From NCBI GenBank assembly GCA_035685925.1, contig DASRZZ010000052.1:17615-81614 (forward strand): a stretch of 64,000 bases of DNA. Reading direction: 5' to 3'. Numbering within the stretch: the stretch's first letter is position 1; every line of letters begins with the position of its first letter. Shown piece by piece: positions 31,805 through 54,042 of this stretch. Source of the DNA: Syntrophales bacterium. Its GTDB lineage: Bacteria; Desulfobacterota; Syntrophia; Syntrophales; UBA2185. The notes under the pieces are model-generated. The model searched no databases. It saw nothing but the letters and a program-made list of their open reading frames with translations, and was not told the DNA's origin. A program made the translations under genes and the position numbers.

Positions 31805-31821
31805 ACCTGGATGTATGAACC

Positions 31822-32591: not shown

Positions 32592-32847
32592 ATGATGGAT
32601 TTTACATTTGCCGAGGAACAAGAGATGTTTAGAAAAGCGGCCAGAGAAAGTTCCCCTTTTGATTGAAAAGGTCAAAGCGTACCGGACAGGCTGTGCGGGT
32701 GCGTGAATCTCATCTTCTCGACTGAATTTAAATCCCATCCTGAGGCATTCCCGCCATGCCGAAAACCTTTCGTTTGATGTTGCACCTCGGCGGGAAACAA
32801 TGTATTTTGCGGCGAACTTTATAATAAGCAGAAGGCGCATCAGATAA
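32592..32847 (+). pseudogene. Collapsed acyl-CoA dehydrogenase gene remnant (N-terminal 20 codons, possibly C-terminal end, ~0.9 kb missing)
   Basis: AAAGGAGGG is followed by ATGATGGAT... encoding MMDFTFAEEQEMFRKAARE, then a stop after 24 codons. Compare the intact paralogue at 34566, MDFKFTEEQELIRKNVREF. The last codons before fixC read ...FIISRRRIR-TAA-ATG, weakly like an ACAD C-terminus (…MVISGTVLR). Confidence 0.45.
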
Positions 32848-34134: not shown

Positions 34135-34415
34135 GCGATATCGTTGATTTGAAGACCAAGCTGGGGTTTGACGTGTTCAAACCCGTGGGAGAACCCCACA
34201 TTAAAATCATACGGGGCATGGAAAAAGATCCGCGCCTAAAACCGGCTATCCGTGCCTGTCCGGCCGGTCTCTATAGCGAGAATGAAGAAGGCGAAGTCGT
34301 CCTCACTATAGACGGGTGTCTAGAGTGCGGCACCTGCCGGCTCGTTTGCGGCACTGAGGTTCTTGATTGGAATTATCCACCCGGGGGAACCGGTGTGCAG
34401 TATCGTTTCGGTTAG
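34131..34415 (+). CDS. fixX: FixX ferredoxin-like protein
   Basis: 94 aa. CPAGLY...GCLECGTCRLVCG matches the FixX pattern. Confidence 0.85.
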   Translation: MSDIVDLKTKLGFDVFKPVGEPHIKIIRGMEKDPRLKPAIRACPAGLYSENEEGEVVLTIDGCLECGTCRLVCGTEVLDWNYPPGGTGVQYRFG

Positions 34416-34565
34416 GGATGGAATTTTTTTATTATGGCAAAACTGTTACATTTGAAGTGTTAATTCCGTGCCATTGCGGATGAGAGATTCTCCCGTAAGA
34501 TCAATGCGTAATGGCCTCTTGTCCGAAATGATCACCTGAATAATAAAATCGAGGGGATGAATATT

Positions 34566-35705
34566 ATGGATTTCAAATTTACTGAGGAACAAGAACTGAT
34601 TCGTAAGAATGTGAGAGAATTCTGCGTGAAGAACGTGGACCCTATCGCGGCGGAAATCGACGAGAACAGCCGCCATCCCTCCGAGCTGTTTGAAAAGCTC
34701 TCTCAAGGGGGCTGGATGGGCATACCCGTTCCACAGGAATACGGGGGCGCCGGGGCGGACTTTTTAACCAGCATCATCGTAGTGGAAGAACTTTCCCGGT
34801 CATGCTCCTCCACGGGATTTACAGTATCGACTCATGCAAGCATCATGTGCATGATGATACTCCTGTTCGGAACGGAAGAACAGAAGAAGATTTACCTCAC
34901 CCCCATGGCTCAAGGCAAGCGTTTGGGAGCTTTCTGCCTGACCGAGCCGGGTGCAGGCACGGATGTGATGGCGATCACTACCGCGGCAGTCTTAGACGGC
35001 AATGATTATATCATTAATGGAATCAAGACCTTCACCTCCAACGGCCCCACTGCAGGGACATACATTGTCTTTGCATGGACGGACAAATCTGCCGGTCGCA
35101 AAGGCATGAGCACATTCATAGTCCCCAGGGAAACCACCGGTCTCAGAGTGGGTGAACACTTCAAGAAGATGGGACTTCGGTCTTCACAGACTTCGGAGAT
35201 AATCTTCAAGGACTGCCGCGTGCCGAAGCGCAATCTTCTTGGAAAGGAAGGTGCGGGGCTCCAGATCGCAATGACCGGCTTCGATGGCGGTCGCGTGGGA
35301 ATCGCCGCGCAGTGCGTCGGCATCCTCCAAGCCGCCCTGGATGAGTCCATCAAGTATTCCAAGGACCGGGTACAATTCGGTGCCCCCATAGCCCGTAACC
35401 AGGCGATCGCATGGATGATATCAGACATGGCCACGGACCTATCCGCTGCCCGCTTCCTCACCTACCACGCGGCCTGGCTCAAAGACCAGAAGTTGCCATT
35501 CGGCAAGGAAGCAGCCATGGCTAAACTTTACGCCTCGGAAGCGGCGATGAAACACACCATAAAGGCGGTCCAGATCCACGGCGGATACGGTTACTGCAAA
35601 GGCGCCAAGGTGGAACGGCTGATGCGTGACGCCAAGATTACAGAAATATACGAAGGGACATCAGAAGCGCAGCGGATGGTTATCTCTGGCACAGTGCTCC
35701 GCTGA
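34566..35705 (+). CDS. Acyl-CoA dehydrogenase (short/medium-chain type)
   Basis: MDFKFTEEQELIRKNVREF..., LTEPGAGTD and the C-terminal [17 protein letters not shown] match ACADs. The track ORF starts 9 nt earlier (34557). Confidence 0.9.
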   Translation: MDFKFTEEQELIRKNVREFCVKNVDPIAAEIDENSRHPSELFEKLSQGGWMGIPVPQEYGGAGADFLTSIIVVEELSRSCSSTGFTVSTHASIMCMMILLFGTEEQKKIYLTPMAQGKRLGAFCLTEPGAGTDVMAITTAAVLDGNDYIINGIKTFTSNGPTAGTYIVFAWTDKSAGRKGMSTFIVPRETTGLRVGEHFKKMGLRSSQTSEIIFKDCRVPKRNLLGKEGAGLQIAMTGFDGGRVGIAAQCVGILQAALDESIKYSKDRVQFGAPIARNQAIAWMISDMATDLSAARFLTYHAAWLKDQKLPFGKEAAMAKLYASEAAMKHTIKAVQIHGGYGYCKGAKVERLMRDAKITEIYEGTSEAQRMVISGTVLR

Positions 35706-35924: not shown

Positions 35925-36692
35925 ATGCCTTCAGCTATTGCCTGTTTCAAATGGGTCGCCGATGAAGCCTACATCAGGCAAGGCCCATCGGGTGACCTGG
36001 ATTTCTCCTCCATAGATTACAAAATCGGCGAGTACGACCGCAATGCCATCGAGGAAGCCGTCCGGCTTAAGGAAACATTTGGTTGGAAGGCCGTCGCCGT
36101 CACTGCAGGTCTCCCCGAGGCGGCGAAGGGTGTAAAAGATGCCCTCTCCCGTGGAGCTGACGAGGCCTATTTTATATCCGACAGTTCGTTCGGCAATCTC
36201 GATTCTTCCCAAACCGCATTCATCTTGGCTGAGGTCATCGGCACGAGGATAAGAGAATATGATTTAATCATCTGTGGCGAGGGATCGAGTGACCTTTATG
36301 CCCAGCAGGTTGGTCCCCGCCTCGCAGTAAACCTTGGAATACCCTGTATTTCGTTCATAGAAAAGTTCCTCATCGAAAATAACCAACTCATCGCAGAACG
36401 TCGCGTCGAGGAAGGCGTCGAGGTGGTAACAACGCCCCTCCCTGCCCTGGTAACGGTTCTCCCTGATATCAATATCCCCAGAATTCCTGGAGTAAGGGAT
36501 ACCCTGATGGCGGGTAAGAAACCGACTGTGAAAATTTTGAAAGATGAACTTCCGCCCATGGGTGAGCCCCTGCTACGCGCAATCAGCCTCACAGCTGCGA
36601 GGATGGAACGGAGCTGCGAGAAGTTCGGCACAAACACCGCAGAGATAGCGCGATTTGTCGCGTCATTTCGCAAGAAGGGCGTTATTGGTTAG
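35925..36692 (+). CDS. fixA: Electron transfer flavoprotein beta subunit, FixA type
   Basis: MPSAIACFKWVADEAYIR...YDRNAIEEAVRLKE...LIICGEGSSDLYAQQVGP matches FixA/EtfB. I chose the start at M28 of the track ORF. The RBS is weak, so the start is uncertain. Confidence 0.8.
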   Translation: MPSAIACFKWVADEAYIRQGPSGDLDFSSIDYKIGEYDRNAIEEAVRLKETFGWKAVAVTAGLPEAAKGVKDALSRGADEAYFISDSSFGNLDSSQTAFILAEVIGTRIREYDLIICGEGSSDLYAQQVGPRLAVNLGIPCISFIEKFLIENNQLIAERRVEEGVEVVTTPLPALVTVLPDINIPRIPGVRDTLMAGKKPTVKILKDELPPMGEPLLRAISLTAARMERSCEKFGTNTAEIARFVASFRKKGVIG

Positions 36693-36702
36693 AGGATATA
36701 AC

Positions 36703-37656
36703 ATGGCAGGAGTCTGGATTGTTTCGGATAACCGTGGGCACGCGCTGGAACTCTTGAACATCGGTCGACAGTTAGCCACTAAAATAGGAACGCGAGTATC
36801 CGCACTTCTCTGCCAAGAACGCAAAGAAATACAGGACTACTTTAACTATGGCGCGGATGAGGTCGTGCTCCTCCCTTCTCTCGACGCTGAACAGCCTCAG
36901 GAAGACTTCGTTTCCCCTATCAGCGAGGAGGCAAGAAGGGGAGAGCCTGATTTGATCCTCCTTCCTGCAACTCCGCGGGGAAAGAATATGGCCGCCCTGC
37001 TTGCGTCACGATTGAATGCGGGACTCGTGAGTGCTTGCGTTGCGATAGATTTTGACGAAAAGGAAAACTCATTTGTGATGGCGCGCCTGATATATGGAGG
37101 AGCAGGACTGCAGAAGGTAACATGCTCGACGCGGCCTGCTCTGGCTACAATTCCGCCGAAAACTTTTGAGGCCGCCAAGCCTTTGCCAGGACGACAAGGG
37201 CTGATCCGCGAACTCCCGGCGCCATCGCCATCGAGAGTCAAGGTCATAGAGAGAAGGGCAAAAGAAAAAGAGGCGAAAGACATCTCCGAAGCGCGCGTCA
37301 TTATTTGCGTGGGCAGGGGAATGGAGAAAAAAGAAGACCTGCTCATTGCACGGCAACTGGCCGAAGTCCTAGGCGGTGCAATAGGCTGTACGAGACCCAT
37401 CTCAGAAGAACTTCACTGGTTGCCTGAAGACCTTTGCATCGGCCTTTCTGGTTTGCAGATAAGACCAGATCTCTACATAGGCATCGGAGTTTCCGGCCAG
37501 GTTCAGCATTTGACGGGCATTCGCAATGCCAGGGTGATCGCCGCCGTTAATAAAGACGAGAATGCCCCCATCTTCAAGGCGGCAGATTTCGGCATAGTAG
37601 GCGATCTCTATGAGGTGATTCCTAAACTCATTTCCGAGATAAAGAACAGGATCTAA
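36703..37656 (+). CDS. fixB: Electron transfer flavoprotein alpha subunit, FixB type
   Basis: MAGVWIVSDNRGHALELL... and the C-terminal FAD motif LYIGIGVSGQVQHLTGIRNARVIAAVNKDENAPIF match FixB/EtfA. The start at M17 of the track ORF lies 10 nt after the fixA stop. Confidence 0.85.
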   Translation: MAGVWIVSDNRGHALELLNIGRQLATKIGTRVSALLCQERKEIQDYFNYGADEVVLLPSLDAEQPQEDFVSPISEEARRGEPDLILLPATPRGKNMAALLASRLNAGLVSACVAIDFDEKENSFVMARLIYGGAGLQKVTCSTRPALATIPPKTFEAAKPLPGRQGLIRELPAPSPSRVKVIERRAKEKEAKDISEARVIICVGRGMEKKEDLLIARQLAEVLGGAIGCTRPISEELHWLPEDLCIGLSGLQIRPDLYIGIGVSGQVQHLTGIRNARVIAAVNKDENAPIFKAADFGIVGDLYEVIPKLISEIKNRI

Positions 37657-38020
37657 GTGAAATGCGCTATCATTAATTCGCATCATCTTCGCGATGTAAA
37701 ATCCAATGCTGAAAAACGTTCGATGTTGGCCGATAATGATGATGCATTTGTGCAGCAACCGATGCTTTTGAGCATCGCTCTCGCCTTCGGCTACAAAAAT
37801 GAATACACATTCTAAGAACCATGGTCCCCTCCCTTTTTGCTGCAAATCACATCTGTAAACGAGATAATATCGTATTAATTAAAATCCTCACCTTTCCGTT
37901 ATTGACAAATAATAATCCATAGTTATATTTAATTTGGTACTTTCATATGAGTAACTTTTTTCGTATTAGTTACCCGATTGGCCGGATGGCACATATACCT
38001 GTTACCGTTATTGGAGGCTT

Positions 38021-38035
38021 TGGCATGGATATTGC
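38021..38035 (+). promoter_or_regulatory. Candidate sigma54 (-24/-12) promoter upstream of the CoA-transferase/dehydratase operon
   Basis: TGGCATGGATATTGC matches TGGCAY-N5-TTGC, with GG and GC exactly 10 nt apart. It is on the coding strand ~75 nt upstream of the proposed start at 38109. A sigma54 enhancer-binding protein is encoded 8.5 kb downstream. Confidence 0.5.
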
Positions 38036-38108
38036 CAATATGCCCCCAAGGGTAAGGTTTCTGTCGAAACATATAGTCCATCTATCAAAGATAACTGGAG
38101 GTGGGACC

Positions 38109-39683
38109 GTGGTAAAATTCATGACTGCAGAAGAGGCGATTAAGCTGATCAAGAACGGAGATACTGTGGCGACTTCCGGATTCGTCGGCATGGGTCATCC
38201 GGAAGAACTTTCTAAAGCAGTTGAAAAGAGCTTTTTGGAAACAGGTCAGCCAAACAACTTAACGCTTACGTTTGGCGCAAGCCAGAATGACGGGAAATCA
38301 AACTGGGGACTGAATCGCTGGGCAAAAGAAGGTCTGGTTAAAAAGGTAGTATCGGGGCATTGGGGATTGCAGCCTGATTTAATCAAGATGGCTGTTGCCA
38401 ACAAGATAGAGGCATACAATATCCCCCAGGGTGTGATTCTTCATGTATTTAGGGCCACCGCCGGTAAGAAGCCGGGCATCGTTACGCATGTTGGCCTAAA
38501 GACGTTTGTTGATCCTCGAGAAACCGGTGGAAAACTGAACAGTATCAGCCATGAGGAGTACGTCCGCTTAATTGAACTTGGCGGCAAGGAATACCTGTTC
38601 TATAAGGCCATCCCTATCAATATTGCTATTGTCCGCGGGACTACGGCAGACGAGAATGGCAATGTATCCATTGAAAGAGAGGCTATAGCCTTGGAATTTG
38701 GCTTGTTAGCCCTCGCTGCCAAAGGTTCAGGAGGGAAGGTCATTGTGCAGGTGGAGAGAGTGACAAAGGCAGGCACCCTTCATCCCATGATGGTCAAGAT
38801 ACCAAAAGTATGGGTGGACGCAATTGTCGTTGCGAAGCCTGAGAACCACTGGCAGGTTCCCATGGCCGAGCCGTATAATCCGAGTCTTTGCGGTGAGACA
38901 AGGGTCCCTCTGAGTCGTATACCACCCCTTGCGATGAGCGAGAGAAAAGTAATTTGCCGAAGGTGCGTCATGGAGCTTATCCCCAATGCAGTCGTAAACA
39001 TGGGTATAGGCATGCCGGAAGGTTGCGGGGCTGTTGCAGCTGAAGAGGACCTGATTGAATTGATGACGATGACGGTCGAGCCGGGTGCGATTGGCGGCGT
39101 GCCTGGAGGCAAGCTCTATTTCGGATCGGCAATAAATCCGGAGGCGCTGGTCGACCATCCCCTGATGTTTGATTTTTATGATGGCGGCGGCCTCGACTTG
39201 GCTGTCCTGGGAATGGCGGAAATGGATCAGTTCGGAAATGTGAACGTCAGCAAGTTCGGCCCCAGGATAGCAGGAGCAGGAGGTTTTATTAACATCACTC
39301 AGAGTACAAAGAGGGTTGTCTTCTGTGGAACACTGACTGCAAGCGGTCTTGAGCTTGGGTTCGATGGCGGAAAACTAAAGGTAGTGAAAGAAGGCAAGGT
39401 CAAGAAATTAGTCAAGAAGGTGGAGCATATCACGTTCAGCGGTGAATATGGAAAGACAAGCGGCCAGACGGTTCTTTACGTGACGGAACGGGCCGTTTTT
39501 AAACTTACCCCTGAAGGCGTCATGTTGATAGAGATTGCCCCCGGCCTGGATATGGAGAAGGATGTATTGTCTCAGATAGAATACAGGCCTCTCATCGCTC
39601 CCGATGTTAAATTGATGGATGCGCGCCTTTTCAAGGAAGGGCCGATGGGAATCAAACCTGAGATATTGAAGAAGGAGCTTTGA
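38109..39683 (+). CDS. Propionate/acetate CoA-transferase family enzyme (Pct / YdiF-like, family I)
   Basis: MTAEEAIKLIKNGDTVATSGFVG..., GHWG, VIVQVERVTKAGTLHP, DYYDGGGLDL, FGPRIAGAGGFINITQ and TERAVF closely track the Clostridium propionicum Pct sequence as I remember it. I chose the GTG start with GGAGG 7 nt upstream. ATG 38121 is an alternative. The longer track ORF (37947) would swallow the promoter. Confidence 0.85.
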   Translation: MVKFMTAEEAIKLIKNGDTVATSGFVGMGHPEELSKAVEKSFLETGQPNNLTLTFGASQNDGKSNWGLNRWAKEGLVKKVVSGHWGLQPDLIKMAVANKIEAYNIPQGVILHVFRATAGKKPGIVTHVGLKTFVDPRETGGKLNSISHEEYVRLIELGGKEYLFYKAIPINIAIVRGTTADENGNVSIEREAIALEFGLLALAAKGSGGKVIVQVERVTKAGTLHPMMVKIPKVWVDAIVVAKPENHWQVPMAEPYNPSLCGETRVPLSRIPPLAMSERKVICRRCVMELIPNAVVNMGIGMPEGCGAVAAEEDLIELMTMTVEPGAIGGVPGGKLYFGSAINPEALVDHPLMFDFYDGGGLDLAVLGMAEMDQFGNVNVSKFGPRIAGAGGFINITQSTKRVVFCGTLTASGLELGFDGGKLKVVKEGKVKKLVKKVEHITFSGEYGKTSGQTVLYVTERAVFKLTPEGVMLIEIAPGLDMEKDVLSQIEYRPLIAPDVKLMDARLFKEGPMGIKPEILKKEL

Positions 39684-39726
39684 GAATTAAAATTGAGATC
39701 AAAAAAATAGTTTAAGGAGAAAAAAA

Positions 39727-41196
39727 ATGGCTTTAAAGACGAGAGAGGAGTACAAGAAATCATTGAAGGCGATGAGGCCCAACGTTTACAAGTTCGGAGA
39801 GTTGATTGAAGACGTAACGACTCATCCGGCGACGAAGAGAGTAGTTGAGAGTCACGCACGGGCAATTGACGCATCGCATGACCCGAAATTGGCGGAGGAT
39901 TTTACTACCACCTCCACTTTAATCCCCGGCGAGAAGATCCACAGATGGAATTCCATGATGGAAACCCTTGAAGATATCATGGCCAATTCCAGGATGAAGA
40001 GATGGATGTACCGCCTGACAGGTAGTTGCAGTGGCGGGGTTTGTGTCGGATGGAACGCCCAGAATGTCATGTGGAATATCACGTCCCAAATGGACAAAGA
40101 ATTGGGGACAAAATACCAGGAGCGCCTCAAGAAGTGGATTATCAATTGCCAGAAGAACGGGCTCGTTGTGGCTGGGGCGCTGACGGATGCGAAAGGCGAC
40201 AGAAGCCTGAGACCGTCGCAGCAGGCCAATCCGGACAGCAATGTGCACATTACGGAAGTCCGTGAAGACGGCATCGTAATCAGCGGCATGAAGGCGATGA
40301 TCTGCGGCGTTGCTGCCTCCAACGAGATATTCATCCTGCCGGGAAGCGGATACCGGGAAGAGGATCAGGACTATGCAGTGAGCTGTGTCGTGCCCCGGGA
40401 CATAAAAGGTCTTACGATCGTAGAGGCCCGCAGGCCGAGCGATACGAGAGAGATGGAAGGCGGATTCGACATTCCGGATTCCGGCATCACACAGTCCTTC
40501 CTGTTTTTCAAGGACTGCTTCGTACCCAATGACCGGGTGTTCATGTGCAAGGAATTCAAATATACCGGGAAGATAATAGAATACTTCACAGCCAACTATC
40601 GTGCGTGCATTGGTGCATGTGTTGCCGGTCAGGGAGACGTGATGATCGGCGCAGCGGCCCTGATGGCGAGAACGAACGGATTGGCTGCCAGCACATTTGC
40701 AAACAAACTGGTGGAGATGGCAGTCAATAATGAAACAACATACTGCATGGGAATAGGCTCTATGGCGCTCGGAAAGAAAGGCCCGGGGGGCATGTGGGTT
40801 TCAGATTCCTTGACTGCTCATGCCAATAAAGTGCATGTCGCCACCCTTCCATATGAGACAAAGCGTATCTGCCAGGATATCGGCGGCGGCATCGTGGAAA
40901 CCGGTTGTTTCCCATCTTCGAAGGACTTTAACGACCAGAAGATAGGAGCCATGGTCCAAGCGGCGCTGAAGGCCTCCGGCAAGTTCAGTGCTGAATCGAG
41001 GGCGCGGGCGGCAAGACTTTCTGAGTGGCTGACACTCGGCGCAGGCGTTCCCGGATGCATGCACGGCGGCGGTTCCCCAGACGGTGCAAAACTGGTTGTC
41101 AGGGCGCTCACTCCTGTTGATCAGTTTGCCGAGTATGCAAGGAAGATAGCTGGTATAACGGAAGAAATACCGGAACCAGAAAAGAAGAAGAAATAG
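39727..41196 (+). CDS. 4-hydroxybutyryl-CoA dehydratase / vinylacetyl-CoA isomerase family protein (AbfD/HpaB fold), divergent
   Basis: 489 aa. EEYKKSLKAMRPNVYKFGELIEDVTTHP, ALTDAKGDRSLRPSQQ, DGIVISGMKA and GDVMIGAAAL are colinear with C. aminobutyricum AbfD as I remember it. AAGGAGA lies upstream. Confidence 0.8.
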   Translation: MALKTREEYKKSLKAMRPNVYKFGELIEDVTTHPATKRVVESHARAIDASHDPKLAEDFTTTSTLIPGEKIHRWNSMMETLEDIMANSRMKRWMYRLTGSCSGGVCVGWNAQNVMWNITSQMDKELGTKYQERLKKWIINCQKNGLVVAGALTDAKGDRSLRPSQQANPDSNVHITEVREDGIVISGMKAMICGVAASNEIFILPGSGYREEDQDYAVSCVVPRDIKGLTIVEARRPSDTREMEGGFDIPDSGITQSFLFFKDCFVPNDRVFMCKEFKYTGKIIEYFTANYRACIGACVAGQGDVMIGAAALMARTNGLAASTFANKLVEMAVNNETTYCMGIGSMALGKKGPGGMWVSDSLTAHANKVHVATLPYETKRICQDIGGGIVETGCFPSSKDFNDQKIGAMVQAALKASGKFSAESRARAARLSEWLTLGAGVPGCMHGGGSPDGAKLVVRALTPVDQFAEYARKIAGITEEIPEPEKKKK

Positions 41197-41211
41197 CGAA
41201 CTGGCGCGGAT

Positions 41212-41234
41212 TGCCCCGCCTGCAGGGCGGGGCA
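41212..41234 (+). other. GC-rich stem-loop after the dehydratase gene (possible attenuator / weak terminator)
   Basis: TGCCCCGCC-TGCAG-GGCGGGGCA is a perfect 9-bp stem located 16 nt after the stop. No T-run follows. Confidence 0.35.
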
Positions 41235-41482
41235 TCCGGCATAATGGAGACGCGGAATTATAAGGTAATTTCCCGCCAAACTAAGCCTGTGTGAAACGTA
41301 CGCTGATACATGCCTTCCCCATGAAGCTCGCGGTATTTAGCCGGCAGGGTGAAGATAGTCTCCAGAAACGATATTTTCAAAGGAGGCTGTTGAGGTTCTA
41401 TTTTTTTTGTCAGCTGAAAACCGATATGAGAAATAATTGCACCAAAGAGGCATAAAAAAAATTTAATAAAAAGGAGGATTTT

Positions 41483-42811
41483 ATGAGTGCAAAGGCAGCC
41501 ACAGGAGTTGATCCAGTAAAGGCCAGGAAGATGATCAGGTTTCGTTGGATCACTTATGGAATGTTCTTGTTAACGTATATCTTTGTATATTTCGACCGTG
41601 TGGCACCGGCTGTTGTCGCACCGGAACTGATGAAGGAATTCGGTCTGACAGCAACGACCCTTGGTATTTTGTCATCGATGTACTTTTATCCTTATGCGGC
41701 AATGCAGTTCCCATCGGGATTTCTAGCCGATAAAATTGGCCCCAGGCTCTCAGTGAGCTCATTTTTCATCATAGCGGCGATCGGTACTGCGTTGTTTGGT
41801 ATGGCCCAAACGTTCGGCTGGTGTATATTCGGCCGCTTTCTAATGGGTGTTGGCGTCGCGGTTGTTTGGATGCCCTGTATGAAGATTCTGTACAACTGGT
41901 TCCGACCGAATGAATTAGCGACACTTACAGGTGTGATGCTCACCTTGGGCAATGTCGGCGCCATACTTGCGTCTGCACCGCTCGCGTTTTTGGTGGGCGT
42001 CGTCGGATGGCGTAATTCATTCTTATGGTTGGGCGCTTTCATGGTCGTCATATCTATCATTGACTACCTGATCGTACGAAATAAGCCGAGCGACATGGGT
42101 TATCCTACAGTTTCGGAGATCGACGGCATCGATTACTACCCGGCACAGACTGCCTCGCAAAAGACGACATTCAACGAAAATTTTATAAAGCTGATGAAGA
42201 TGAAGAACTACTGGCTGATATCCATCTATGCCTTTGTGATCTACGGGACGGTTATGGGATTTCAGGGCCTCTGGTTCATTCCTTATGCACAGCATATTTA
42301 CAATCTGCCAAAACAGCAGGCCGCCAACATGCTCATGTTCTGGCCGATAGGTATGGCATTGGGATGCTTTGCCGCCGGTTTTGTTTCTGACCGAATTCTT
42401 AAATCACGCAGGAAGACTTCTTTCTACGGCATGCTGATCTACGTTGTCACCTGGATACCGATAGCTGTCTTCACCGGATCAATACCCATTGCTTGGTTTT
42501 ACGCCCTGTTATTTTTCATGGGCTTCTTCTGTGGAGCGTACGTGCCCAATTACGCGCACATCGCTGACGGTCAGCCAACCAGCTTCATGGCGACATCCAA
42601 CGGACTGCTGAATATATGGTACTTTGTAGGAGGGGCTTTATATCAGGCGTTGATGGGCGTGGTGCTTGACCACTATGGAAAGGTCAACGGCAAATTCCCG
42701 GTGGAGGCGTACCAGGCCACCTTTATGTTCTGTGCCGTATCGCTCGTAGTAGGCGCTATAGCGATGTACTTTACAACGGATTCCAAACCCATCATTACCA
42801 AGAAGGCGTAA
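41483..42811 (+). CDS. MFS transporter (probable organic-acid uptake)
   Basis: 442 aa with 12 predicted hydrophobic helices. It has an MFS-like loop motif (GFLADKIGPR). AAGGAGG lies upstream. Confidence 0.8.
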   Translation: MSAKAATGVDPVKARKMIRFRWITYGMFLLTYIFVYFDRVAPAVVAPELMKEFGLTATTLGILSSMYFYPYAAMQFPSGFLADKIGPRLSVSSFFIIAAIGTALFGMAQTFGWCIFGRFLMGVGVAVVWMPCMKILYNWFRPNELATLTGVMLTLGNVGAILASAPLAFLVGVVGWRNSFLWLGAFMVVISIIDYLIVRNKPSDMGYPTVSEIDGIDYYPAQTASQKTTFNENFIKLMKMKNYWLISIYAFVIYGTVMGFQGLWFIPYAQHIYNLPKQQAANMLMFWPIGMALGCFAAGFVSDRILKSRRKTSFYGMLIYVVTWIPIAVFTGSIPIAWFYALLFFMGFFCGAYVPNYAHIADGQPTSFMATSNGLLNIWYFVGGALYQALMGVVLDHYGKVNGKFPVEAYQATFMFCAVSLVVGAIAMYFTTDSKPIITKKA

Positions 42812-42831
42812 GGATCACCACATGGGGGGTA

Positions 42832-42846
42832 TGGCAGACTGATTGC
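42832..42846 (+). promoter_or_regulatory. Second candidate sigma54 (-24/-12) promoter, at the start of the long spacer before etfB
   Basis: TGGCAGACTGATTGC matches TGGCA-N7-TTGC with correct GG/GC spacing. It lies 20 nt after the MFS stop and ~370 nt upstream of etfB. Confidence 0.4.
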
Positions 42847-43217
42847 GCGGCGCAGGCGGGTTTCGGTGAATTTAGGAAGCCCCCATATCCCCTTTAACAT
42901 AAACGGACACAATTCACGATTCGCCTGCGAGGCGAGATGGCCGGGTTTGTCGTCTAGTGGAGCGTGTGAATCAATCGTCCTTGACTGTTCTTTAAATATG
43001 GTTTACGCAAATAACACGCAAATCTATCCCACAGGATACGGTGCTCATTGGTAGGGATTTGTTTTGAGTTCCGGTACGAGAGGACGCCGCACGCGGCCTA
43101 GCTGGTGCAACAGCCTTACCATCTCACGGAATCTGGTTTATGAGATGGATGGCTCCTAGGCGCCTTCACATATCTTATGCAAAGCGACTTTTAATATGAG
43201 CGGGAGTGAAAATTTTT

Positions 43218-44000
43218 ATGGAAATTGTTGTGTGTGTGAAACAGGTACCTGATACCACAGAAGTCAAGATTGATCCTGTGACCAATACATTGATCAGGGA
43301 AGGAGTGCCAAGCATTGTCAATCCTTTCGACAAATTTGCCCTAGAGATGGCGCTGCAGCTCCGGGATAAACACGGCGGAAAAGTAACAGTCATCAGCATG
43401 GGACCGCCACAGGCGGCAGCCGCCCTGCGGGAATGTGTCGCCATGGGCGCCGATGAAGCCATTCTCTTGAGTGACAGGGCATTTGCCGGTTCGGACACGC
43501 TCGCCACATCCTATACATTGTCTCAAGCAGTACGAAAAATCGGCAAGTTCGATCTGGTCATTTGCGGCAAGCAGGCGATAGATGGAGACACGGCCCAGGT
43601 GGGACCTGAGATGGCAGAACATCTTGGCATCGGCCAGTTGACCTACATAAGCACGATCGAATTTGACGGAGAAAAGATCATTGCCCACCGCGAACAGGAT
43701 GAAGGATATGACGTTATAGAAGCCAAACCGCCACTTGTAGTGACTATCATAAAATTGATGACAGATCCCCGTATTCCCACGGTGAAAGGCACGGCGCGGG
43801 CATATCGCACGGAAGTCCCTGTATGGACTGCCGCCGACATTGCCATCGATCCCAAGGCCGCAGGCCTCGAAGGTTCGCCCACGGCGGTACGGCGCATATT
43901 TACGCCGGAGCGACGTGGCAAGGGTGAACTTATTAAGGGCGACAGCAAAGAAGCCGTCGATTTGCTTGTCGATAAGCTGAGGCAGGCCAAGATACTATAG
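43218..44000 (+). CDS. etfB: Electron transfer flavoprotein beta subunit
   Basis: MEIVVCVKQVPDTTEVKIDP..., NPFDKFALEMAL and LVICGKQAIDGDTAQVGP match EtfB. The track ORF starts 12 nt earlier, at a GTG. Confidence 0.9.
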   Translation: MEIVVCVKQVPDTTEVKIDPVTNTLIREGVPSIVNPFDKFALEMALQLRDKHGGKVTVISMGPPQAAAALRECVAMGADEAILLSDRAFAGSDTLATSYTLSQAVRKIGKFDLVICGKQAIDGDTAQVGPEMAEHLGIGQLTYISTIEFDGEKIIAHREQDEGYDVIEAKPPLVVTIIKLMTDPRIPTVKGTARAYRTEVPVWTAADIAIDPKAAGLEGSPTAVRRIFTPERRGKGELIKGDSKEAVDLLVDKLRQAKIL

Positions 44001-44021
44001 TCGAGGAGGAAACAGTTAAAT

Positions 44022-45218
44022 ATGTCTGTTCGGATATTATCGGAAGAATGCATTGGTTGTCAGACGTGCATTGACAGTTGCCCTTACGGCGCAATTGTCA
44101 TGAAGGACGGAAAGGCCGTTCTCACGGATGCTTGCACATTCTGCGGCGCCTGCGAAAGCAGTTGCCCTGTATCCGCCATTGTGGTCGAGCGAGAAAAAGC
44201 TGAAGAGGCGATAGACGTCAGCGCCTATAAGGGTGTCTGGGTATTCATAGAACATCGTGATGGTCGTATACGCAACGTTTCGCTGGAACTTATTGGTGAG
44301 GGAAGGAAGCTGGCCCAGGAGCTTGGCGAGGAGGTCTCTGCTGTCCTTATTGGCGACAATGTGGTGGAAATGAGCAAGGAGCTTTTTGCCAGTGGCGCCG
44401 ACAACGTGTACTTAGTCGAAGGCAACGCCTTTCAGCACTATTCGACAGACGCCTATTCAATCGCCTTTACGTACCTTATCAAGAAGCATCTTCCGTCCGT
44501 TATATTGTTGGGTGCAACCAATGACGGCCGCGATTTAGGCCCCCGGGTAGCAGCGAGGATCAAGACTGGACTGACGGCCGACTGTACGAATCTTTCCATA
44601 GATACTGAAACGAGGCTTGTCGCATGGACAAGACCTGCTTTTGGCGGCAATATCATGGCAACGATCTTCTGCCCGGACAACCGTCCGCAGATGGGAACGG
44701 TAAGGCCCAAAGTCTTCAAGAAGCCTGTGCCTGACTACAACCGCGTAGGAAAAATAATCCGGGAAGAGTTGGCGATAAACGAAAAGGACATTCGCACAAA
44801 ACTTGTCGACGTCGTCAAGGTCTGCACTTTCTCTTGCAATCTCGAAGACGCGGAGATCATCGTATCTGGAGGACGGGGGCTTGGAAAGCCGGAAGGCTTC
44901 AGGATGGTTGAAGAGCTCGCACAGGTTTTGAAGGGTACTGTCGGATCGTCCCGTGCTGCTGTTGATGCGGGCTGGATGCCGTACCCTCACCAGGTGGGTC
45001 AAACAGGAAAAACTGTGGCGCCAAAGATCTATATTGCTTGCGGGATATCCGGCGCCATTCAGCATCTCGCCGGAATGCAGACGTCCGATGTGATAATTGC
45101 AATCAATAAGGATCCGGATGCTCCCATCTTCAAGGTGGCAACATACGGCATCGTTGGCGATGTCTACGAAGTAGTGCCGGCGTTGACCGCCAAGTTCAGG
45201 GAGGTACTCCAGTCATAA
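44022..45218 (+). CDS. etfA: Electron transfer flavoprotein alpha subunit with N-terminal 2x[4Fe-4S] ferredoxin domain
   Basis: 398 aa. Residues 1-60 hold two Cys clusters (CIGCQTCIDSCP and CTFCGACESSCP). The rest is a normal EtfA, with IYIACGISGAIQHLAGMQTSDVIIAINKDPDAPIF. Confidence 0.9.
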   Translation: MSVRILSEECIGCQTCIDSCPYGAIVMKDGKAVLTDACTFCGACESSCPVSAIVVEREKAEEAIDVSAYKGVWVFIEHRDGRIRNVSLELIGEGRKLAQELGEEVSAVLIGDNVVEMSKELFASGADNVYLVEGNAFQHYSTDAYSIAFTYLIKKHLPSVILLGATNDGRDLGPRVAARIKTGLTADCTNLSIDTETRLVAWTRPAFGGNIMATIFCPDNRPQMGTVRPKVFKKPVPDYNRVGKIIREELAINEKDIRTKLVDVVKVCTFSCNLEDAEIIVSGGRGLGKPEGFRMVEELAQVLKGTVGSSRAAVDAGWMPYPHQVGQTGKTVAPKIYIACGISGAIQHLAGMQTSDVIIAINKDPDAPIFKVATYGIVGDVYEVVPALTAKFREVLQS

Positions 45219-45285
45219 GGTGCACCCTGCATGCCGGCAAGGTTTTTTGACAACACAAATATCTATTTCACGAGGAGGGTAATTT

Positions 45286-46425
45286 ATGAATTTCACGGTA
45301 TCACCAGAAAATGAAGGCATCCGCAAGATGGTGCGGGAATTTGCGGAAAAGAAGCTGGCTCCTACTATTGTGGAGCGTGATGAAAAAGAGCTGTTTGACC
45401 GAAGTATATTTGATGAAATGGGTAAATTGGGCCTCATGGGTCTGCCGTATCCAGAAAAGTATGGTGGAGGCGGTATGGACTTCATCGCTTATGCCATCGC
45501 AATTGAGGAAATTTCACGCATAGACGCGTCAACCTCTATCGGTATGTCGGTGCACACTTCGCTATGTTCATGGCCGATCTACAAATACGGCACGGAGGAG
45601 CAGAAACAGAAATACCTCGTGCCGCTCGCCCAGGGCATAAAGTTAGGCGCATTCGGTCTAACGGAACCCAATGCAGGCACAGATGTAGGCAATGCCTCAA
45701 CAGTTGCCGTCAAAGAAGGAGATTCATATCTTATCACGGGGACCAAGGTTTTCAACACGAACGGTGGAGAGGCGGAAGTAGAGGTTGTCTTTACGAAAAC
45801 AAATAAAGAGGCGGGCATTAAGGGTATGAGCGCGTTTATTCTCGAGAAAGGTTCACCCGGCTTGAGCTTCGGTAAGAAAGAAACGAAAATGGGCATTCGC
45901 GCAGCCGTACAGCGCGAAGTAATCATGGTCAACGCAAAAACCCCCGCCTCCAACATCTTAGGCAAAGAGGGCGATGGGTTTAGAATTGCCATGACGACTT
46001 TGGATGGCGGCCGTATCGGTATAGCTGCCCAGGCGGTGGGCATTGCCCAAGGCGCTCTGGATCACGCAATCAAATATGCGAAACAGCGTGTCCAGTTCGG
46101 CAAACCCATAGCGAGCCAGCAGGGTATCAGCTTTATGCTCGCCAACATGGCAACAAAGATTGAGGCAGCCCGTCTCATGACGTATAGAGCCGCTTTTAAC
46201 AAATCTAGTGATCTTCCTTATGCCAAGGAAGCGGCAATGGCTAAGCTGTTTGCTTCCGATGTCGCGATGTCTGTTACGACCGACGCCGTCCAGGTATTTG
46301 GCGGCTATGGGTACAGCCGCGAGTATCCTGTGGAGCGCCTGATGCGCGATGCGAAGATTACGCAGATCTATGAGGGCACAAGTGAGGCAATGCGCATGGT
46401 TATCGGCGGCAGTATCCTGAGGTAA
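45286..46425 (+). CDS. Acyl-CoA dehydrogenase (butyryl-CoA dehydrogenase-like)
   Basis: 379 aa. It has [24 protein letters not shown] and the C-terminal [25 protein letters not shown] lies upstream. Confidence 0.9.
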
Positions 46426-46570
46426 TCCATGCGGGTTGATTGGTGATTCTAGAATAGGTTTCATGAAATCCGGGGGAGATGGGGATAACCTATCTTCCCC
46501 TTCGATTTCGCAAGGCGTGCTAACCTTCGCTTATTTCAGGACTGGTTTGAAAGCTGACTCGTGATACGGA

Positions 46571-48043
46571 TTATTGATGTTTCTCGCCATCGGCGGGCGA
46601 CGAGAGATTATATTTCTTCAGCTTCCGCACCACTGTAGATTGATTGATTTTCATTGCCTTGGCGATCGCTCTCGTACTCTTGTGATTCTGGAGCGCCTGC
46701 ATTAGGAGTTGCATCTCCGTTTGTTCAATTGTAGTTTTGAAGCTGTTGTCCCCGGTGACGTTAATTGCTTCAGGAGTGATCTGGCTCTTAATCTGAATAG
46801 GAAGATGCTTAATTGTTATTTCATCACCTTCCGTCATGATGATCATCCTCTCTACCACATTTTCCAATTCCCGCACATTGCCAGGCCAGGGGTACAGCAT
46901 CAGAACATCAACAACCTCTGGCGCGATGCGCTTGTTGTATTGATGTTTCTTGTTCATCTTGTCGAGAAAGTGCAAGACGAATATAGGTATGTCCTCTTTG
47001 CGCTCGCGCAATGGAGGAATATCAATAGAAACGACGTTAAGGCGATAATAAAGATCGTCCCGAAAAGTACCCTTTTTTACCATTTCTTCAAGATTCTTGT
47101 TTGTCGCAGCAACAATGCGCACATCGACGTAGGTGGGCTTTAAGCCACCAATCCGCATGATTTCACGATCCTGCAGAGCCCTCAAAAGCTTCCCCTGAAG
47201 ACTGTATGGGATATCGCCAATTTCGTCCAAGAAGAGGGTCCCCTCATGGGCAAGCTCAAACATGCCCGGTTTCCCCTGTTTTCTTGCACCCGTAAAGGCG
47301 CCATAATCATACCCGAAGAGTTCTGACTCAAGAAGAGTTTCCGGAATCGCGCCGGAGTTCACCTTAATTAGCGGTCCCTTCGAGCGCTGGCTTTGTTGAT
47401 GTATGGCGTTCGCGAACACTTCCTTGCCCACGCCCGATTCGCCAGTGATTAAAACCGATACATCAAAACCGGCGACACGAGCCACTATTTCCTTTATTCT
47501 TTTTGTCGATTCGCTTCGAGCCACCAGATCGATACGCTTCATATGCTCGAGTTCGGCGGCATATAATTCATTCAGCCGCTGCGTTTTTTCAAGTAACTGC
47601 TTCAAGTAGAGTATTTCTGTTATATCCCTAATATTGGCTACAACCCGCCTTATTTCGCCATCTTCACCCCATATGGGTATGGCCGTTGCCATTATTTTCT
47701 GGCCGATTTTCTCCCCTCTGAGCATCTCCAGCATAATTGTAGCTTTTTGTCTGTCCCTGATTGCAGCCATCGCTGCGGATTCCGTGTACCATTTTTGCTC
47801 TACAAGATCCTTAGCACATTTTCCGATGGCGAACTCCCTCTGAATTCCCGCAATGCGTTCCCAAGCACTATTAACCCTTAGGATAACTCCATGCCCATCG
47901 GTTATGAAAAGACCGTCGTGGGATGACTCAATGATATCTTCCAATTCGCAAAAATCGCAATTGTGCAGACCCTGATGGGACTTCTCACCAGCGACTAATT
48001 TCAGGTTGTCTGTCTTTATTGTTTTGTCTGCAAGTTTTGGCAT
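46571..48043 (-). CDS. Sigma54-dependent transcriptional activator (PAS sensor + AAA+ + Fis-type HTH)
   Basis: 490 aa. It has an N-terminal PAS-like domain (SHDGLFITDGHGVILRVNSAWERIAG), AAA+ Walker A GESGVGKE, the GAFTGA loop (YGAFTGA) and a C-terminal HTH (STRAIAKAMKINQSTVVRKLKKY). It is convergent with the etf-acd operon. Confidence 0.9.
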   Translation of the reverse strand: MPKLADKTIKTDNLKLVAGEKSHQGLHNCDFCELEDIIESSHDGLFITDGHGVILRVNSAWERIAGIQREFAIGKCAKDLVEQKWYTESAAMAAIRDRQKATIMLEMLRGEKIGQKIMATAIPIWGEDGEIRRVVANIRDITEILYLKQLLEKTQRLNELYAAELEHMKRIDLVARSESTKRIKEIVARVAGFDVSVLITGESGVGKEVFANAIHQQSQRSKGPLIKVNSGAIPETLLESELFGYDYGAFTGARKQGKPGMFELAHEGTLFLDEIGDIPYSLQGKLLRALQDREIMRIGGLKPTYVDVRIVAATNKNLEEMVKKGTFRDDLYYRLNVVSIDIPPLRERKEDIPIFVLHFLDKMNKKHQYNKRIAPEVVDVLMLYPWPGNVRELENVVERMIIMTEGDEITIKHLPIQIKSQITPEAINVTGDNSFKTTIEQTEMQLLMQALQNHKSTRAIAKAMKINQSTVVRKLKKYNLSSPADGEKHQ

Positions 48044-48175
48044 TTCTCTTCCTGGTCAATTTTCTTTAACACAAAAGAATATAGTTACGGTAATCGCGTA
48101 TGTCAATATTATTTTAGTCCGCATTTCGGCAATGATCCCAGAGTCTTATCATGGGTATCAGGTAGAACAACTAAT

Positions 48176-48580: not shown

Positions 48581-48605
48581 AGAGGTCTTCTCCTCTTTCA
48601 ATCCC

Positions 48606-49241: not shown

Positions 49242-49418
49242 AGTCTATATGAGTCCCATACCAAAAAAATCGAGAGCTTTAAAATGTCGCCACCTTGTCA
49301 TCTTTGATATTGCCTTGTACCATTTCGATTCCCCCGTTTACTAGTGGTAATCTTCGTAAGAGATATTGCGATTGCCGATAAGAAAACCTGACAGAAACGC
49401 AACGCATTGAACAGGCGC

Positions 49419-54033: not shown

Positions 54034-54042
54034 AACGGCCTG

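Follow-up and report, generated by a model that had tools for sequence, protein, structure and literature searches.

The window analyzed here, a 64-kb stretch of contig DASRZZ010000052.1 from a Syntrophales bacterium to which all coordinates refer unless a locus is named, contains at positions 32848-48043 a conserved module of genes that includes the gene for an AbfD-like protein (hereinafter AbfDl). AbfDl is related to 4-hydroxybutyryl-CoA dehydratase (AbfD) and belongs to a distinct clade. The module is larger than originally bounded: the initial annotation, made from the sequence of the window, listed seven genes and opened the island at 38021, but this is the coordinate of a -24/-12 promoter box, not of a gene start, and five upstream genes (32848-37656) belong to the island as well. 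The seven genes and their domain assignments were all reproduced by Pfam, NCBIfam and PDB matches, with none of the seven proteins attaining an NCBIfam equivalog cut-off. The claim that they form a conserved unit with a sigma54 enhancer-binding protein (EBP) is borne out by recurrent synteny and by a promoter of pct, the CoA-transferase gene, that is found in 29 of 31 loci. The module was also described as uncharacterized, and indeed no characterization or experimental data for either the AbfDl clade or the module were found in the searchable literature. We tentatively interpret the island, with somewhat less than even confidence, as a single inducible module, catabolic or 'enoyl-CoA-respiratory' in nature, that handles a gamma-substituted or unsaturated carboxylic acid of short (C4-C5) chain length.

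The composition of the module was derived from the genomic contexts of AbfDl. A scan with one genome per species yielded 80 AbfDl loci (denoted by L-numbers; P-numbers denote representative proteins of the clade), in which the twelve island proteins were mapped by tblastn and the neighboring open reading frames (ORFs) were clustered, most of them without Pfam annotation; 52 of these loci are informative, with at least three genes on each side of AbfDl. Within six genes of AbfDl, an acyl-CoA dehydrogenase (ACAD) is encoded in 37 of the 52 informative loci, EtfA, the alpha subunit of an electron transfer flavoprotein (ETF), in 25, a Pct-type CoA-transferase in 20, and an EBP and an MFS transporter in 17 each. 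The commonest core consists of AbfDl and a short-chain ACAD (71% of the informative loci), with an ETF nearby in about half. The closest loci (93-97% identity) belong to Syntrophales/Syntrophaceae metagenome-assembled genomes (MAGs) whose source metagenomes are peat, fen, and other wetland or soil samples, and a Syntrophales bacterium of such a peat or wetland habitat is the most likely source of the window. The comparison of neighborhoods across genomes that the initial annotation had proposed as a check shows that the block recurs in Syntrophales, Syntrophobacter MAGs and Bacillota. Syntrophobacter-type MAGs and a Bacillota MAG (L028) typically have the gene order EBP-pct-AbfDl-ACAD, continued in the longer versions by etfB-etfA-fixC-fixX, and an MFS gene. 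In most of the Syntrophobacter-type loci, the EBP orthologue (60-68% identity) lies directly 5' of pct, and the orthologue of the upstream ACAD of the island (ACAD_up; 61-68%) lies directly 3' of AbfDl, as it also does in L028 and in Desulfofundulus. The upstream ETF subunits have orthologues with 47-56% identity in the Syntrophobacter/Bacillota-type loci, MFS orthologues (67-75%) are present in the Syntrophobacter-type clusters, and FixC is syntenic with the AbfD-like gene in 13 of the 52 informative loci. Neomoorella/Moorella carry ACAD-etfBA-fixC genes 5' of AbfDl, with no pct or EBP in the stretch examined, and AbfDl proteins with 61-68% identity are encoded in Anaerolineae, Desulfobacterales, Bacteroidales and Ignavibacteria, many of them in the arrangement ACAD-etfB-etfA-AbfDl.

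Around this core, the genes for activation and transport are exchanged. Intestinimonas butyriciproducens has an EBP, an AbfT-type transferase, AbfDl, a permease of ~455 amino acids (aa) and an ACAD; a Firmicutes MAG (L087) has pct, AbfDl, ACAD, etfB, etfA, a member of the ~455-aa permease family and an EBP; a Desulfitobacteriaceae MAG (L088) has an EBP, an MFS transporter, a PaaK-like ligase, AbfDl, ACAD, etfB and etfA; and in Desulfofundulus (L032), a PaaK-like ligase in place of pct is combined with AbfDl, ACAD, etfBA, fixCX, a permease and an EBP. The activating enzyme can be a Pct (window, L087), an AbfT-type transferase (Intestinimonas, Megasphaera), a PaaK-like ligase (L032, L088) or an AMP-forming acyl-CoA synthetase (L052), and the transporter can be an MFS protein, a ~455-aa permease, a BCCT carrier or a member of another family. 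The swapping of activating enzymes and transporters around a constant core therefore points to one pathway whose entry compound is a carboxylic acid taken up from outside. In both Intestinimonas and Megasphaera, the AbfT homologue is encoded directly 5' of AbfDl (the Intestinimonas protein matches 3EH7 with 394 bits and 3GK7 with 358 bits), which weakens the earlier argument that a Pct-type rather than a Cat2/AbfT-type transferase speaks against 4-hydroxybutyrate as the substrate.

The most conspicuous component of the module is AbfDl itself. It is recognized by the Pfam models HpaB_N (250 bits) and HpaB (142 bits), matches 1U8V with 305 bits, and is 36-42% identical, depending on the aligner, to the AbfD of Clostridium aminobutyricum (CaAbfD) over the full length. 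In AbfD, C99, C103, C299 and H292 bind the cluster, T190, E257, Y296 and E455 are reported to be important for dehydration, and most of the activity of the N. maritimus enzyme disappears in its E260Q and T194V variants (bioRxiv 10.1101/2020.02.05.935528). AbfDl was aligned to CaAbfD and to the N. maritimus 4HBD, and 79 family members were extracted from the 80 loci for the comparison of residues. Three cluster ligands, Cys99, Cys103 and Cys299, are kept, the first pair with one extra residue in the spacing (CxxxxC), and the fourth, His292, which aligns to residue 291 of the window protein, is replaced by Tyr there, in the other 78 extracted members and in all three clade representatives that cover the position. 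Further changes are T190 to Cys, E257 to Gln, Y296 to Ile, K300 to Val and A460 to Gly, with E455 lost in a four-residue deletion, and these changes are essentially invariant across the 79 members, two of which have Ala at position 190 and one Ser at position 257. Altogether, five of the eight functionally important residues of AbfD are missing. The initial annotation was right about altered cluster ligands in the dehydratase homologue, albeit with understatement, given that the replacement of His292 is accompanied by the changes at T190, E257, Y296, K300 and E455. Its view that the homologue is not a canonical AbfD is likewise upheld by the absence of the defining residues. Because these residues were looked for and are missing, AbfDl does not count as a canonical AbfD in the narrow sense; its place is in the AbfD/HpaB superfamily.

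AbfDl has also gained a residue that canonical AbfD lacks. A clade-specific cysteine, Cys394, which lies in a two-residue insertion (ETGC), is shared by 79 of the 79 members extracted and by every clade representative. A comparison of 85 sequences showed no counterpart outside the clade, and Cys394 is thus a candidate for the fourth ligand of the cluster. Cys295 was considered as a general replacement ligand and rejected: three proteins of the clade (P0121, P0122 and P0123) have Ala at this position, whereas Cys394 is invariant. The boundaries of the clade are sharp. In a HMMER search of 1.84 billion representatives, only four clade representatives at the 50% level were retrieved, with 47-62% identity, followed by a gap down to 38% or less, where canonical AbfD and many uncharacterized COG2368 clades fall. 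Most of these other COG2368 clades keep His at position 292; Tyr is found there in every clade member that covers the position and in none of the sampled sequences from outside the clade. The clade comprises at least about 2,400 non-redundant (90% identity) sequences with E <1e-100 against one member, and its hosts include peat Syntrophales and Syntrophobacter, rumen Bacteroidales, Intestinimonas (gut), Megasphaera, Anaerolineae and sulfate reducers. These proteins are routinely labeled '4-hydroxybutyryl-CoA dehydratase', as in the JGI annotation, and are not named AbfD by the NCBI pipeline. The AlphaFold2 model of AbfDl (pLDDT 85) has its best Foldseek fold matches to 1U8V and 6VJR (TM 0.73), followed by HpaB monooxygenases and then by ACADs (~E 1e-8); loop 438-457, which replaces the segment with E455 and A460, is modeled with pLDDT <50.

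Natural fusions of EtfA and AbfDl suggest a direct functional link between AbfDl and ETF. One such protein of 825 aa (P0122) combines the Pfam domains ETF, ETF_alpha, HpaB_N and HpaB, and its 90% cluster includes eight distinct 825-aa members, which come from independent assemblies (JGI, ENA and Logan). The same linker is present in another cluster of fusion proteins, P0130, which is more divergent. The fusion operon, located on a 117-kb contig, has the order ACAD-etfB-etfA::abfDl. These fusions, together with the frequent adjacency of etfA and abfDl, argue for a partnership of the two proteins, in which AbfDl might be another client of the ETF next to the ACAD, might depend on the ETF for its proper redox state or might at least share a complex with it. 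Neither adjacency nor fusion to ETF genes was seen with the canonical-type AbfD sequences sampled, and neither is known for canonical abfD loci. The treatment of the AbfD homologue in the initial annotation as a redox-neutral dehydratase/isomerase sits poorly with such a link.

The redox step, too, has to be redrawn, the initial annotation having assigned it to the Bcd-like ACAD and the ferredoxin-EtfA and missed the upstream ACAD, the FixAB-type ETF and FixCX. The upstream set fixC-fixX-ACAD-etfB-etfA (32848-37656) resembles YdiO/YdiQRST of E. coli, and in other lineages its counterparts are the partners of pct-abfDl-MFS-EBP. The best NCBIfam models for this set are YdiS (PRK10015), FixX, the YdiO family, YdiQ (PRK12342) and YdiR (PRK11916), all matched below the equivalog cut-offs, and the Fix/Ydi subunits are therefore considered only family-level members. 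The set with the ferredoxin-EtfA and Bcd accompanies AbfDl only in the Syntrophales lineage. Syntrophobacter-type loci contain the Fix-type set, one locus (L033) contains only the bifurcating set, which is the sole ACAD/ETF set within its ~5 kb upstream stretch, and the window contains both. On this distribution, the ancestral redox partner of AbfDl is the upstream ACAD with the FixAB-type ETF and FixCX, and the CarE-type Etf/Bcd is an addition in Syntrophales.

The case for sigma54 control rests on conservation. Across the whole window, the promoter pattern TGGCAC-N5-TTGCW, with two mismatches or fewer allowed, has 31 matches compared with 30.3 expected in shuffles, so that a single -24/-12 match means little. 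A conservation scan anchored on GG/GC, however, locates a match 65-98 nt 5' of the pct start in those 29 of the 31 loci, including Syntrophobacter and the Bacillota MAG, within a spacer that otherwise aligns poorly, close relatives included; the same scan 5' of fixC, ACAD_up, etfB_up and the MFS gene gave zero matches in any locus. This conservation supports the element at 38021 as a sigma54 promoter. Two such promoters had been proposed, and only this one stands. The second element, TGGCAGACTGATTGCG at 42832, is 374 nt away from etfB and is missing from all nine of the closest relatives; a two-mismatch match in one of them (L006, at -258) is unrelated, and the short conserved stretch directly before etfB contains no GG-N10-GC. 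A sigma54 promoter at this position was therefore rejected for lack of conservation. In other lineages, Intestinimonas (L081) has a perfect box, TGGCACATGGTTTGCA, 228 nt before its EBP-led operon, L088 has two perfect -24/-12 boxes, one before the MFS gene and the other before the ligase gene, and L032 and L087 have good matches. No rpoN gene was seen among the annotated ORFs of the window. The had-type operons of Clostridia are sigma54-controlled as well. A genome survey of Clostridia lists a sigma54 XanR regulon containing abfD (PMC6615313), and COG2368 is listed as sigma54-regulated in another survey (PMC12316311); neither assigns a function to these genes or separates the AbfDl clade. Sigma54 control of abfD-like genes has thus already been noted.

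Table 1. Genes and other elements of the AbfDl island and its borders (window coordinates)
Feature	Coordinates	Strand	Evidence or remarks
ACAD N-terminus remnant, 24 codons (MMDFTFAEEQEMFRKAARESSPFD*)	32592..32666	+	read from sequence
FixC/YdiS-like ETF:quinone oxidoreductase flavoprotein	32848..34134	+	Pfam FAD_binding_3, DAO, ETFQO_UQ-bd
FixX/YdiT-like ferredoxin-like protein	34131..34415	+	Pfam Fer4_ETF_QO; NCBIfam FixX 69 bits
ACAD_up, short-chain Bcd/YdiO-like acyl-CoA dehydrogenase	34557..35705	+	Pfam ACAD N, M and C domains
EtfB_up, FixA/YdiQ-type ETF beta	35925..36692	+	Pfam ETF; NCBIfam PRK12342 168 bits, FixA 157 bits
EtfA_up, FixB/YdiR-type ETF alpha, start uncertain	36655..37656	+	Pfam ETF, ETF_alpha; NCBIfam PRK11916 223 bits
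Predicted sigma54 -24/-12 element TGGCATGGATATTGCC	38021..38036	+	~73-88 nt 5' of pct start codon; conserved position
YdiF/Pct-type class I CoA-transferase, 524 aa	38109..39683	+	Pfam CoA_trans; PDB 2AHU 441 bits
AbfDl, AbfD-like [4Fe-4S]/FAD enzyme, distinct clade	39727..41196	+	Pfam HpaB_N, HpaB
MFS transporter	41483..42811	+	Pfam MFS_1
EtfB, bifurcating type	43218..44000	+	Pfam ETF; NCBIfam EtfB 346 bits; contains QAIDGDTAQVGP
EtfA with N-terminal 2x[4Fe-4S] ferredoxin domain, CarE type	44022..45218	+	Pfam Fer4, ETF, ETF_alpha
Butyryl-CoA-dehydrogenase-like ACAD	45286..46425	+	Pfam; PDB 4L1F 479, 5OL2 470, 1BUC 452 bits
12-bp G+C-rich hairpin between convergent ACAD and EBP genes	46472..46500	+	likely bidirectional terminator
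Sigma54 EBP, PAS + AAA+ (GAFTGA) + HTH	46571..48043	-	Pfam PAS, Sigma54_activat, AAA_lid_14, HTH_50
Sigma70-like promoter for EBP gene, TTGACA-17-TATATT	48078..48106	-	consensus match only, 11/12 positions

Several of the features in Table 1 call for comment. Residues 56-569 of the listed pct product align to residues 13-524 of E. coli YdiF, its TVEPGAIGG segment, which we take to be the site of the catalytic Glu of the class I family, lines up with TVETGPIGG of YdiF, and it scores 414 against the NCBIfam equivalog FadX (cut-off 750). The ATG at 37947 with which the pct ORF was listed is an over-extension; the likeliest start is the GTG at 38109, which follows a conserved ribosome-binding site, GGAGGTGGG, and gives a product of 524 aa matching the relatives. 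A near-consensus sigma70-type match, TTGACA-16-TATATT, is located at 37902-37929 (+), ~90 nt 5' of the sigma54 box of pct, and is not conserved in the relatives. The EtfB_up ORF opens with TTG at 35844 and its likely start is the ATG at 35925, with relatives of 255-260 aa; similarly, the downstream EtfB ORF opens with GTG at 43206 and its likely start is the ATG at 43218, the start region being kept in the relatives. FixC scores 417 bits with NCBIfam PRK10015 and 403 bits with FixC, both under the cut-offs. ACAD_up matches PDB 5OL2 with 435 bits, and both it and the downstream Bcd-like ACAD carry the IYEGTSE motif with the catalytic Glu. Residues 1-391 of the ferredoxin-EtfA align to residues 1-390 of CarE in 6FAH (470 bits), and the DGDTAQVGP segment of the downstream EtfB is presumably a marker of bifurcating EtfB. 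The nearest models for the MFS transporter are the phosphoglycerate (PgtP) and D-galactonate subfamilies (TIGR00881, 135 bits; TIGR00893, 117 bits; both under the cut-offs), and the EBP, with its GESGVGKE (Walker A) and YGAFTGA motifs, is PrdR-like according to NCBIfam (441 bits, under the cut-off). An Rfam scan of positions 31000-49000 returned nothing except one sub-threshold chance match.

At the 5' border of the island, the ORF at 32592-32666, which has its own AAGGAGG ribosome-binding site, is similar to the N-terminus of ACAD_up, MNIMDFKFTEEQELIRK, and is probably non-functional. The spacer of ~460 nt that holds it, before fixC, is missing from the nearest relatives and is therefore probably a scar of a rearrangement. 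Compared with the closest loci (L001-L008, L026 and L045), the island shows identities of 93-97% for AbfDl, 94-98% for the Bcd-like ACAD and 90-96% for Pct, with 71-76% for FixC and 68-72% for the upstream EtfA. Such unevenness gives the upstream half a mosaic or recombined look in comparison with the downstream half.

Some of the contexts of AbfDl in other genomes deserve to be recorded in their own right. The ~455-aa polytopic family (L081 11745-13109; L032 16393-17778; L087 13091-14470; also L040, L075 and L077), with 40-65% mutual identity among its members, is encoded beside AbfDl in Firmicutes and Desulfobacterota and is a candidate dedicated transporter; neither this family nor the transporter family of Bacteroidales has a match in Pfam or NCBIfam. 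In three unrelated lineages (L030 634-11464; L052 5199-18077; L073), ACAD-EtfBA-AbfDl is accompanied by a BCCT carrier and a QueG/RDH-like Fe-S protein, with a thiolase in addition in L030 and L052, not in L073, and an MttB-family methyltransferase, a corrinoid protein and RACo are encoded 4-8 kb from the EtfA::AbfDl fusion operon (L085 16436-20563); the BCCT and the MttB/corrinoid neighbors are hints of a link to quaternary-amine metabolism. On the contig of P0106 (L089 7198-16572), a 70%-identical AbfDl has an enoyl-CoA hydratase on one side and a CBS-like PALP enzyme on the other, with four Cys_Met_Meta_PP enzymes dependent on pyridoxal phosphate (PLP), a two-subunit CoA-transferase, a methyltransferase and an ABC transporter in the vicinity, a sulfur-amino-acid context unlike that in the window. 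A second COG2368 paralogue with 29% identity is found within 10 kb of AbfDl in L016 (~18810) and L040 (~19021), and the AbfD superfamily contains many further uncharacterized clades with varied active-site residues.

The favored reading of the island, that of one inducible module for a short carboxylic acid, can be cast as a succession of six steps. The PAS-containing EBP would sense the acid or its CoA ester and activate the sigma54 promoter at 38021, the MFS protein would import the acid, and the CoA-transferase, a member of the YdiF/Pct family, would convert it to the acyl-CoA, probably recycling the CoA of the product. AbfDl would then interconvert a gamma-substituted or 3-enoyl acyl-CoA and the 2-enoyl-CoA, presumably by AbfD-type radical chemistry in a re-built active site and in functional contact with the ETF, and the butyryl-CoA-dehydrogenase-type ACAD, in which the catalytic Glu is present, would interconvert the enoyl-CoA and the saturated acyl-CoA. 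Finally, electrons would be exchanged between the ACAD, and possibly AbfDl, and the menaquinone pool through the FixAB-type ETF and FixCX, and in this lineage would also reach NAD and ferredoxin through the CarCDE-like bifurcating set of Bcd, EtfB and ferredoxin-EtfA. A short chain length is suggested by the Bcd/short-chain type of the ACADs, the YdiF/Pct type of the transferase and the homologue of 4-hydroxybutyrate CoA-transferase in Intestinimonas. The default candidate for the substrate, not an established one, is 4-hydroxybutyrate or a close analogue.

Several points weigh against this interpretation. AbfDl lacks His292, T190, E257, Y296 and E455, so that dehydration of 4-hydroxybutyryl-CoA by the known mechanism is unlikely. 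No gene for 4-hydroxybutyrate dehydrogenase (4hbD) or succinate-semialdehyde dehydrogenase was found in the Pfam-annotated neighborhoods; the window contains no 4hbD, and none is called in the fully annotated Intestinimonas locus. A fusion indicates functional association, not necessarily direct electron transfer, and the sequence is compatible with flux in either direction, reductive or oxidative. Furthermore, AbfDl is found in divergent contexts, among the sulfur-amino-acid PLP enzymes in L089, with BCCT carriers in L030, L052 and L073, and in Syntrophomonas without metabolic neighbors, a diversity that may reflect more than one substrate for the clade.

The island has partial counterparts among known systems. 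It resembles the ydiF-ydiO-ydiQRST and caiTABCDE/fixABCX systems because the upstream set and the YdiF-like transferase match the respective models: it has in common with them a YdiF-type transferase, a YdiO/CaiA-family ACAD, homologues of FixA/YdiQ, FixB/YdiR, FixC/YdiS and FixX/YdiT and a dedicated transporter, as well as the succession of a transferase, a dehydratase and an ACAD that is served by an ETF together with an ETF:quinone oxidoreductase. Unlike in these systems, the dehydratase-type step is assigned to an AbfD-like protein, not to a crotonase (CaiD), the regulator is a sigma54 EBP instead of an AraC/CaiF-type protein, the transporter belongs to MFS, not BCCT, the matches are under the NCBIfam equivalog cut-offs, and the hosts are strict anaerobes using menaquinone. 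With the acrylate pathway (Pct, LcdABC and AcrABC of C. propionicum) and the had/fld reductive Stickland operons, the island shares the combination of a Pct-type transferase, a dehydratase and an ACAD with its own EtfBA in one operon, and AcrABC is the best or second-best NCBIfam model for both ACADs and the downstream Etf subunits (254-501 bits, all under the cut-offs); however, it has neither a 2-hydroxyacyl-CoA dehydratase of the HgdAB/LcdAB type nor the ATP-dependent activator, and encodes an AbfD paralogue instead. The downstream trio, with a two-cluster-ferredoxin EtfA, an EtfB with DGDTAQVGP and a Bcd-like ACAD, is reminiscent of CarCDE of Acetobacterium woodii (6FAH) and of Bcd-EtfAB (5OL2, 4L1F), but the gene order in the island is etfB-etfA-acad, the trio occurs with AbfDl in Syntrophales only, and bifurcation is predicted from the sequence families. 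AbfD itself (1U8V from C. aminobutyricum, 6VJR from N. maritimus) shares with AbfDl the fold, the three cysteine ligands and the presence, beside AbfDl, of a gene for a CoA-activating enzyme. The differences are the replacement of His292 and other residues, the CxxxxC spacing, the new Cys394, the low identity between the clade and the canonical enzymes (38% or less by HMMER), the genes for ETF and ACAD that adjoin or are fused to the AbfDl gene, and the failure to find a gene for 4-hydroxybutyrate dehydrogenase in the annotated neighborhoods.

Among the alternatives to the favored reading, one that appears unlikely is that AbfDl works as an ETF-dependent oxidoreductase of acyl-CoA esters, has an electron-transfer cluster held by Cys residues only and acts in series with the ACAD, for example, in gamma,delta desaturation or reduction (2-enoyl-CoA to 2,4-dienoyl-CoA) or in a C5 route like that of C. 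viride (5-hydroxyvalerate, 4-pentenoyl-CoA, 2,4-pentadienoyl-CoA). An enzyme of this kind would make sense of the fusions to EtfA, of the loss of the acid/base residues, of the joint appearance of the invariant, clade-only Cys394 and loss of the His ligand, and of the ACAD being the commonest neighbor; moreover, the AbfD fold is related to that of the ACADs, the classical ETF clients. The C. viride pathway is known biochemically, and Buckel's 2021 review (PMC8473912) names no genes for it. However, the ligation of the cluster by Cys394 is deduced from sequence comparison, fusions can arise between pathway neighbors without any exchange of electrons, and neither C. viride nor any other named fermenter of 5-aminovalerate, or of 4-hydroxybutyrate, is listed among the homologues of the Intestinimonas AbfDl. 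In addition, the C. viride dehydratase reportedly contains FAD only and has a mass of ~42 kDa, which fits an ACAD rather than AbfDl.

Ordinary fermentation of 4-hydroxybutyrate (or of 4-hydroxybutyrate derived from gamma-aminobutyrate or succinate) is less probable still. Under this scenario, AbfDl would be a working dehydratase/vinylacetyl-CoA isomerase with variant ligands, Pct would replace AbfT, and Bcd-Etf would reduce crotonyl-CoA to butyryl-CoA, as in Clostridium aminobutyricum. The full-length similarity to CaAbfD and the common fold, the retention of three of the four cluster ligands, the AbfT homologues in Intestinimonas and Megasphaera, the adjoining Bcd-like ACADs and the name given in the JGI annotation are all consistent with it. 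They have to be set against the five residue losses across the 79 members, of which the changes of E to Q and T to V have matching N. maritimus variants that lose most of the activity, and against the gap between the identities within the clade (at least 47%) and outside it (38% or less). The lack of 4hbD and succinate-semialdehyde dehydrogenase genes in the Pfam-annotated neighborhoods, the fusion and adjacency of AbfDl genes to ETF genes, which were not seen in the sampled canonical-type clades, and the absence of the AbfD name in the NCBI pipeline annotation argue in the same direction.

We give a similarly low probability to the radical gamma-elimination by AbfDl of a group other than hydroxyl from a 4-substituted butyryl-CoA, the candidates being ammonia (from 4-aminobutyryl-CoA), trimethylamine (from gamma-butyrobetainyl-CoA) and a thiol, with the resulting crotonyl-CoA being reduced through ACAD and ETF or consumed by beta-oxidation. 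A charged amine or a thiol would presumably not need the lost Fe-His Lewis-acid site or the Glu/Tyr proton relay, and Tyr292, Ile296 and Val300 would make the site more hydrophobic and aromatic. The genomic contexts in favor are the BCCT carriers beside ACAD-EtfBA-AbfDl, with a thiolase in L030 and L052 and without it in L073, the MttB-family methyltransferase, corrinoid protein and RACo near the fusion operon, and the location of the L089 AbfDl among gamma-eliminating Cys/Met PLP enzymes, to which the analogy with cai/fix (CaiA with FixABCX) adds a fit with the upstream half of the island. Nevertheless, the window itself encodes an MFS transporter nearest to the PgtP and D-galactonate subfamilies, not a BCCT carrier or an amino-acid permease; ACAD_up fits the AcrC/Bcd-like model (501 bits) much better than that of CaiA (198 bits), of which it is not an orthologue; and the known gamma-butyrobetaine trimethylamine-lyase, BbuA, is ACAD-like, not AbfD-like. 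The active-site signature of AbfDl, furthermore, is identical in all contexts, and context-specific substrates may therefore become a common intermediate before AbfDl.

Finally, it is very improbable that a transferase, an HpaB-family protein unrelated to it and an ACAD/ETF set for general beta-oxidation have come together by chance: the etfB-fdetfA-bcd segment has no conserved sigma54 promoter, Bcd and Etf are housekeeping proteins in syntrophs, and some AbfDl genes (in Syntrophomonas and L004) have no such neighbors, but the synteny, which extends across phyla even as unrelated genes for activation and transport replace one another, the fusion proteins and the conserved, shared sigma54/EBP control are hard to reconcile with coincidence. 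Two further ideas were discarded. Dehydration of lactoyl-CoA, an alpha-hydroxy substrate considered in view of the Pct/Acr-like layout, is chemically unlikely for the oxidative radical mechanism of the AbfD type, and propionate oxidation or the C6 dismutation of Smithella, considered in view of the host lineages, found no support, the clade being present also in non-propionate organisms.

Elsewhere in the window, aconitase-family (16364-18301) and isocitrate/isopropylmalate-dehydrogenase-like (19812-21242) genes and two tandem genes for family III CoA-transferases (22377-23705 and 23712-25061), all on the (+) strand, may constitute another organic-acid pathway. The genes that follow the EBP gene in the window (48176-55248, all on the (-) strand), which encode QueF, a LysE-type exporter and an RND efflux system (outer-membrane factor, AcrB-type pump and membrane-fusion protein), appear unrelated to the island.

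If the AbfDl clade does something other than canonical AbfD, the consequences extend beyond this genome. The abfD gene serves as a marker of the 4-aminobutyrate/succinate route to butyrate in metagenome surveys, and in many genomes the butyrate route would then have been assigned wrongly. Enzymologists would find in the clade a natural variant of the AbfD scaffold that has lost the His ligand as well as the proton relay and that some organisms have fused to ETF, so that the role of the cluster is directly testable. A more specific proposal, admittedly doubtful, is that AbfDl is an ETF-coupled radical enzyme in which a four-Cys [4Fe-4S] cluster (C101, C106, C298 and C394) would relay single electrons from the ETF to the FAD/acyl-CoA site. 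Were this the case, ATP-independent radical elimination or reduction on short acyl-CoA esters would be possible, AbfDl would take over the function of the activator-dependent 2-hydroxyacyl-CoA dehydratases or that of the redox-neutral AbfD, and syntrophs as well as gut and rumen anaerobes would be capable of a 'hydroxy- or amino-acid respiration' through FixABCX or a bifurcating Etf. From the ecological standpoint, the island would represent an inducible capacity for an as yet unnamed substrate in the specialists of syntrophic propionate and butyrate metabolism that inhabit methanogenic wetlands.

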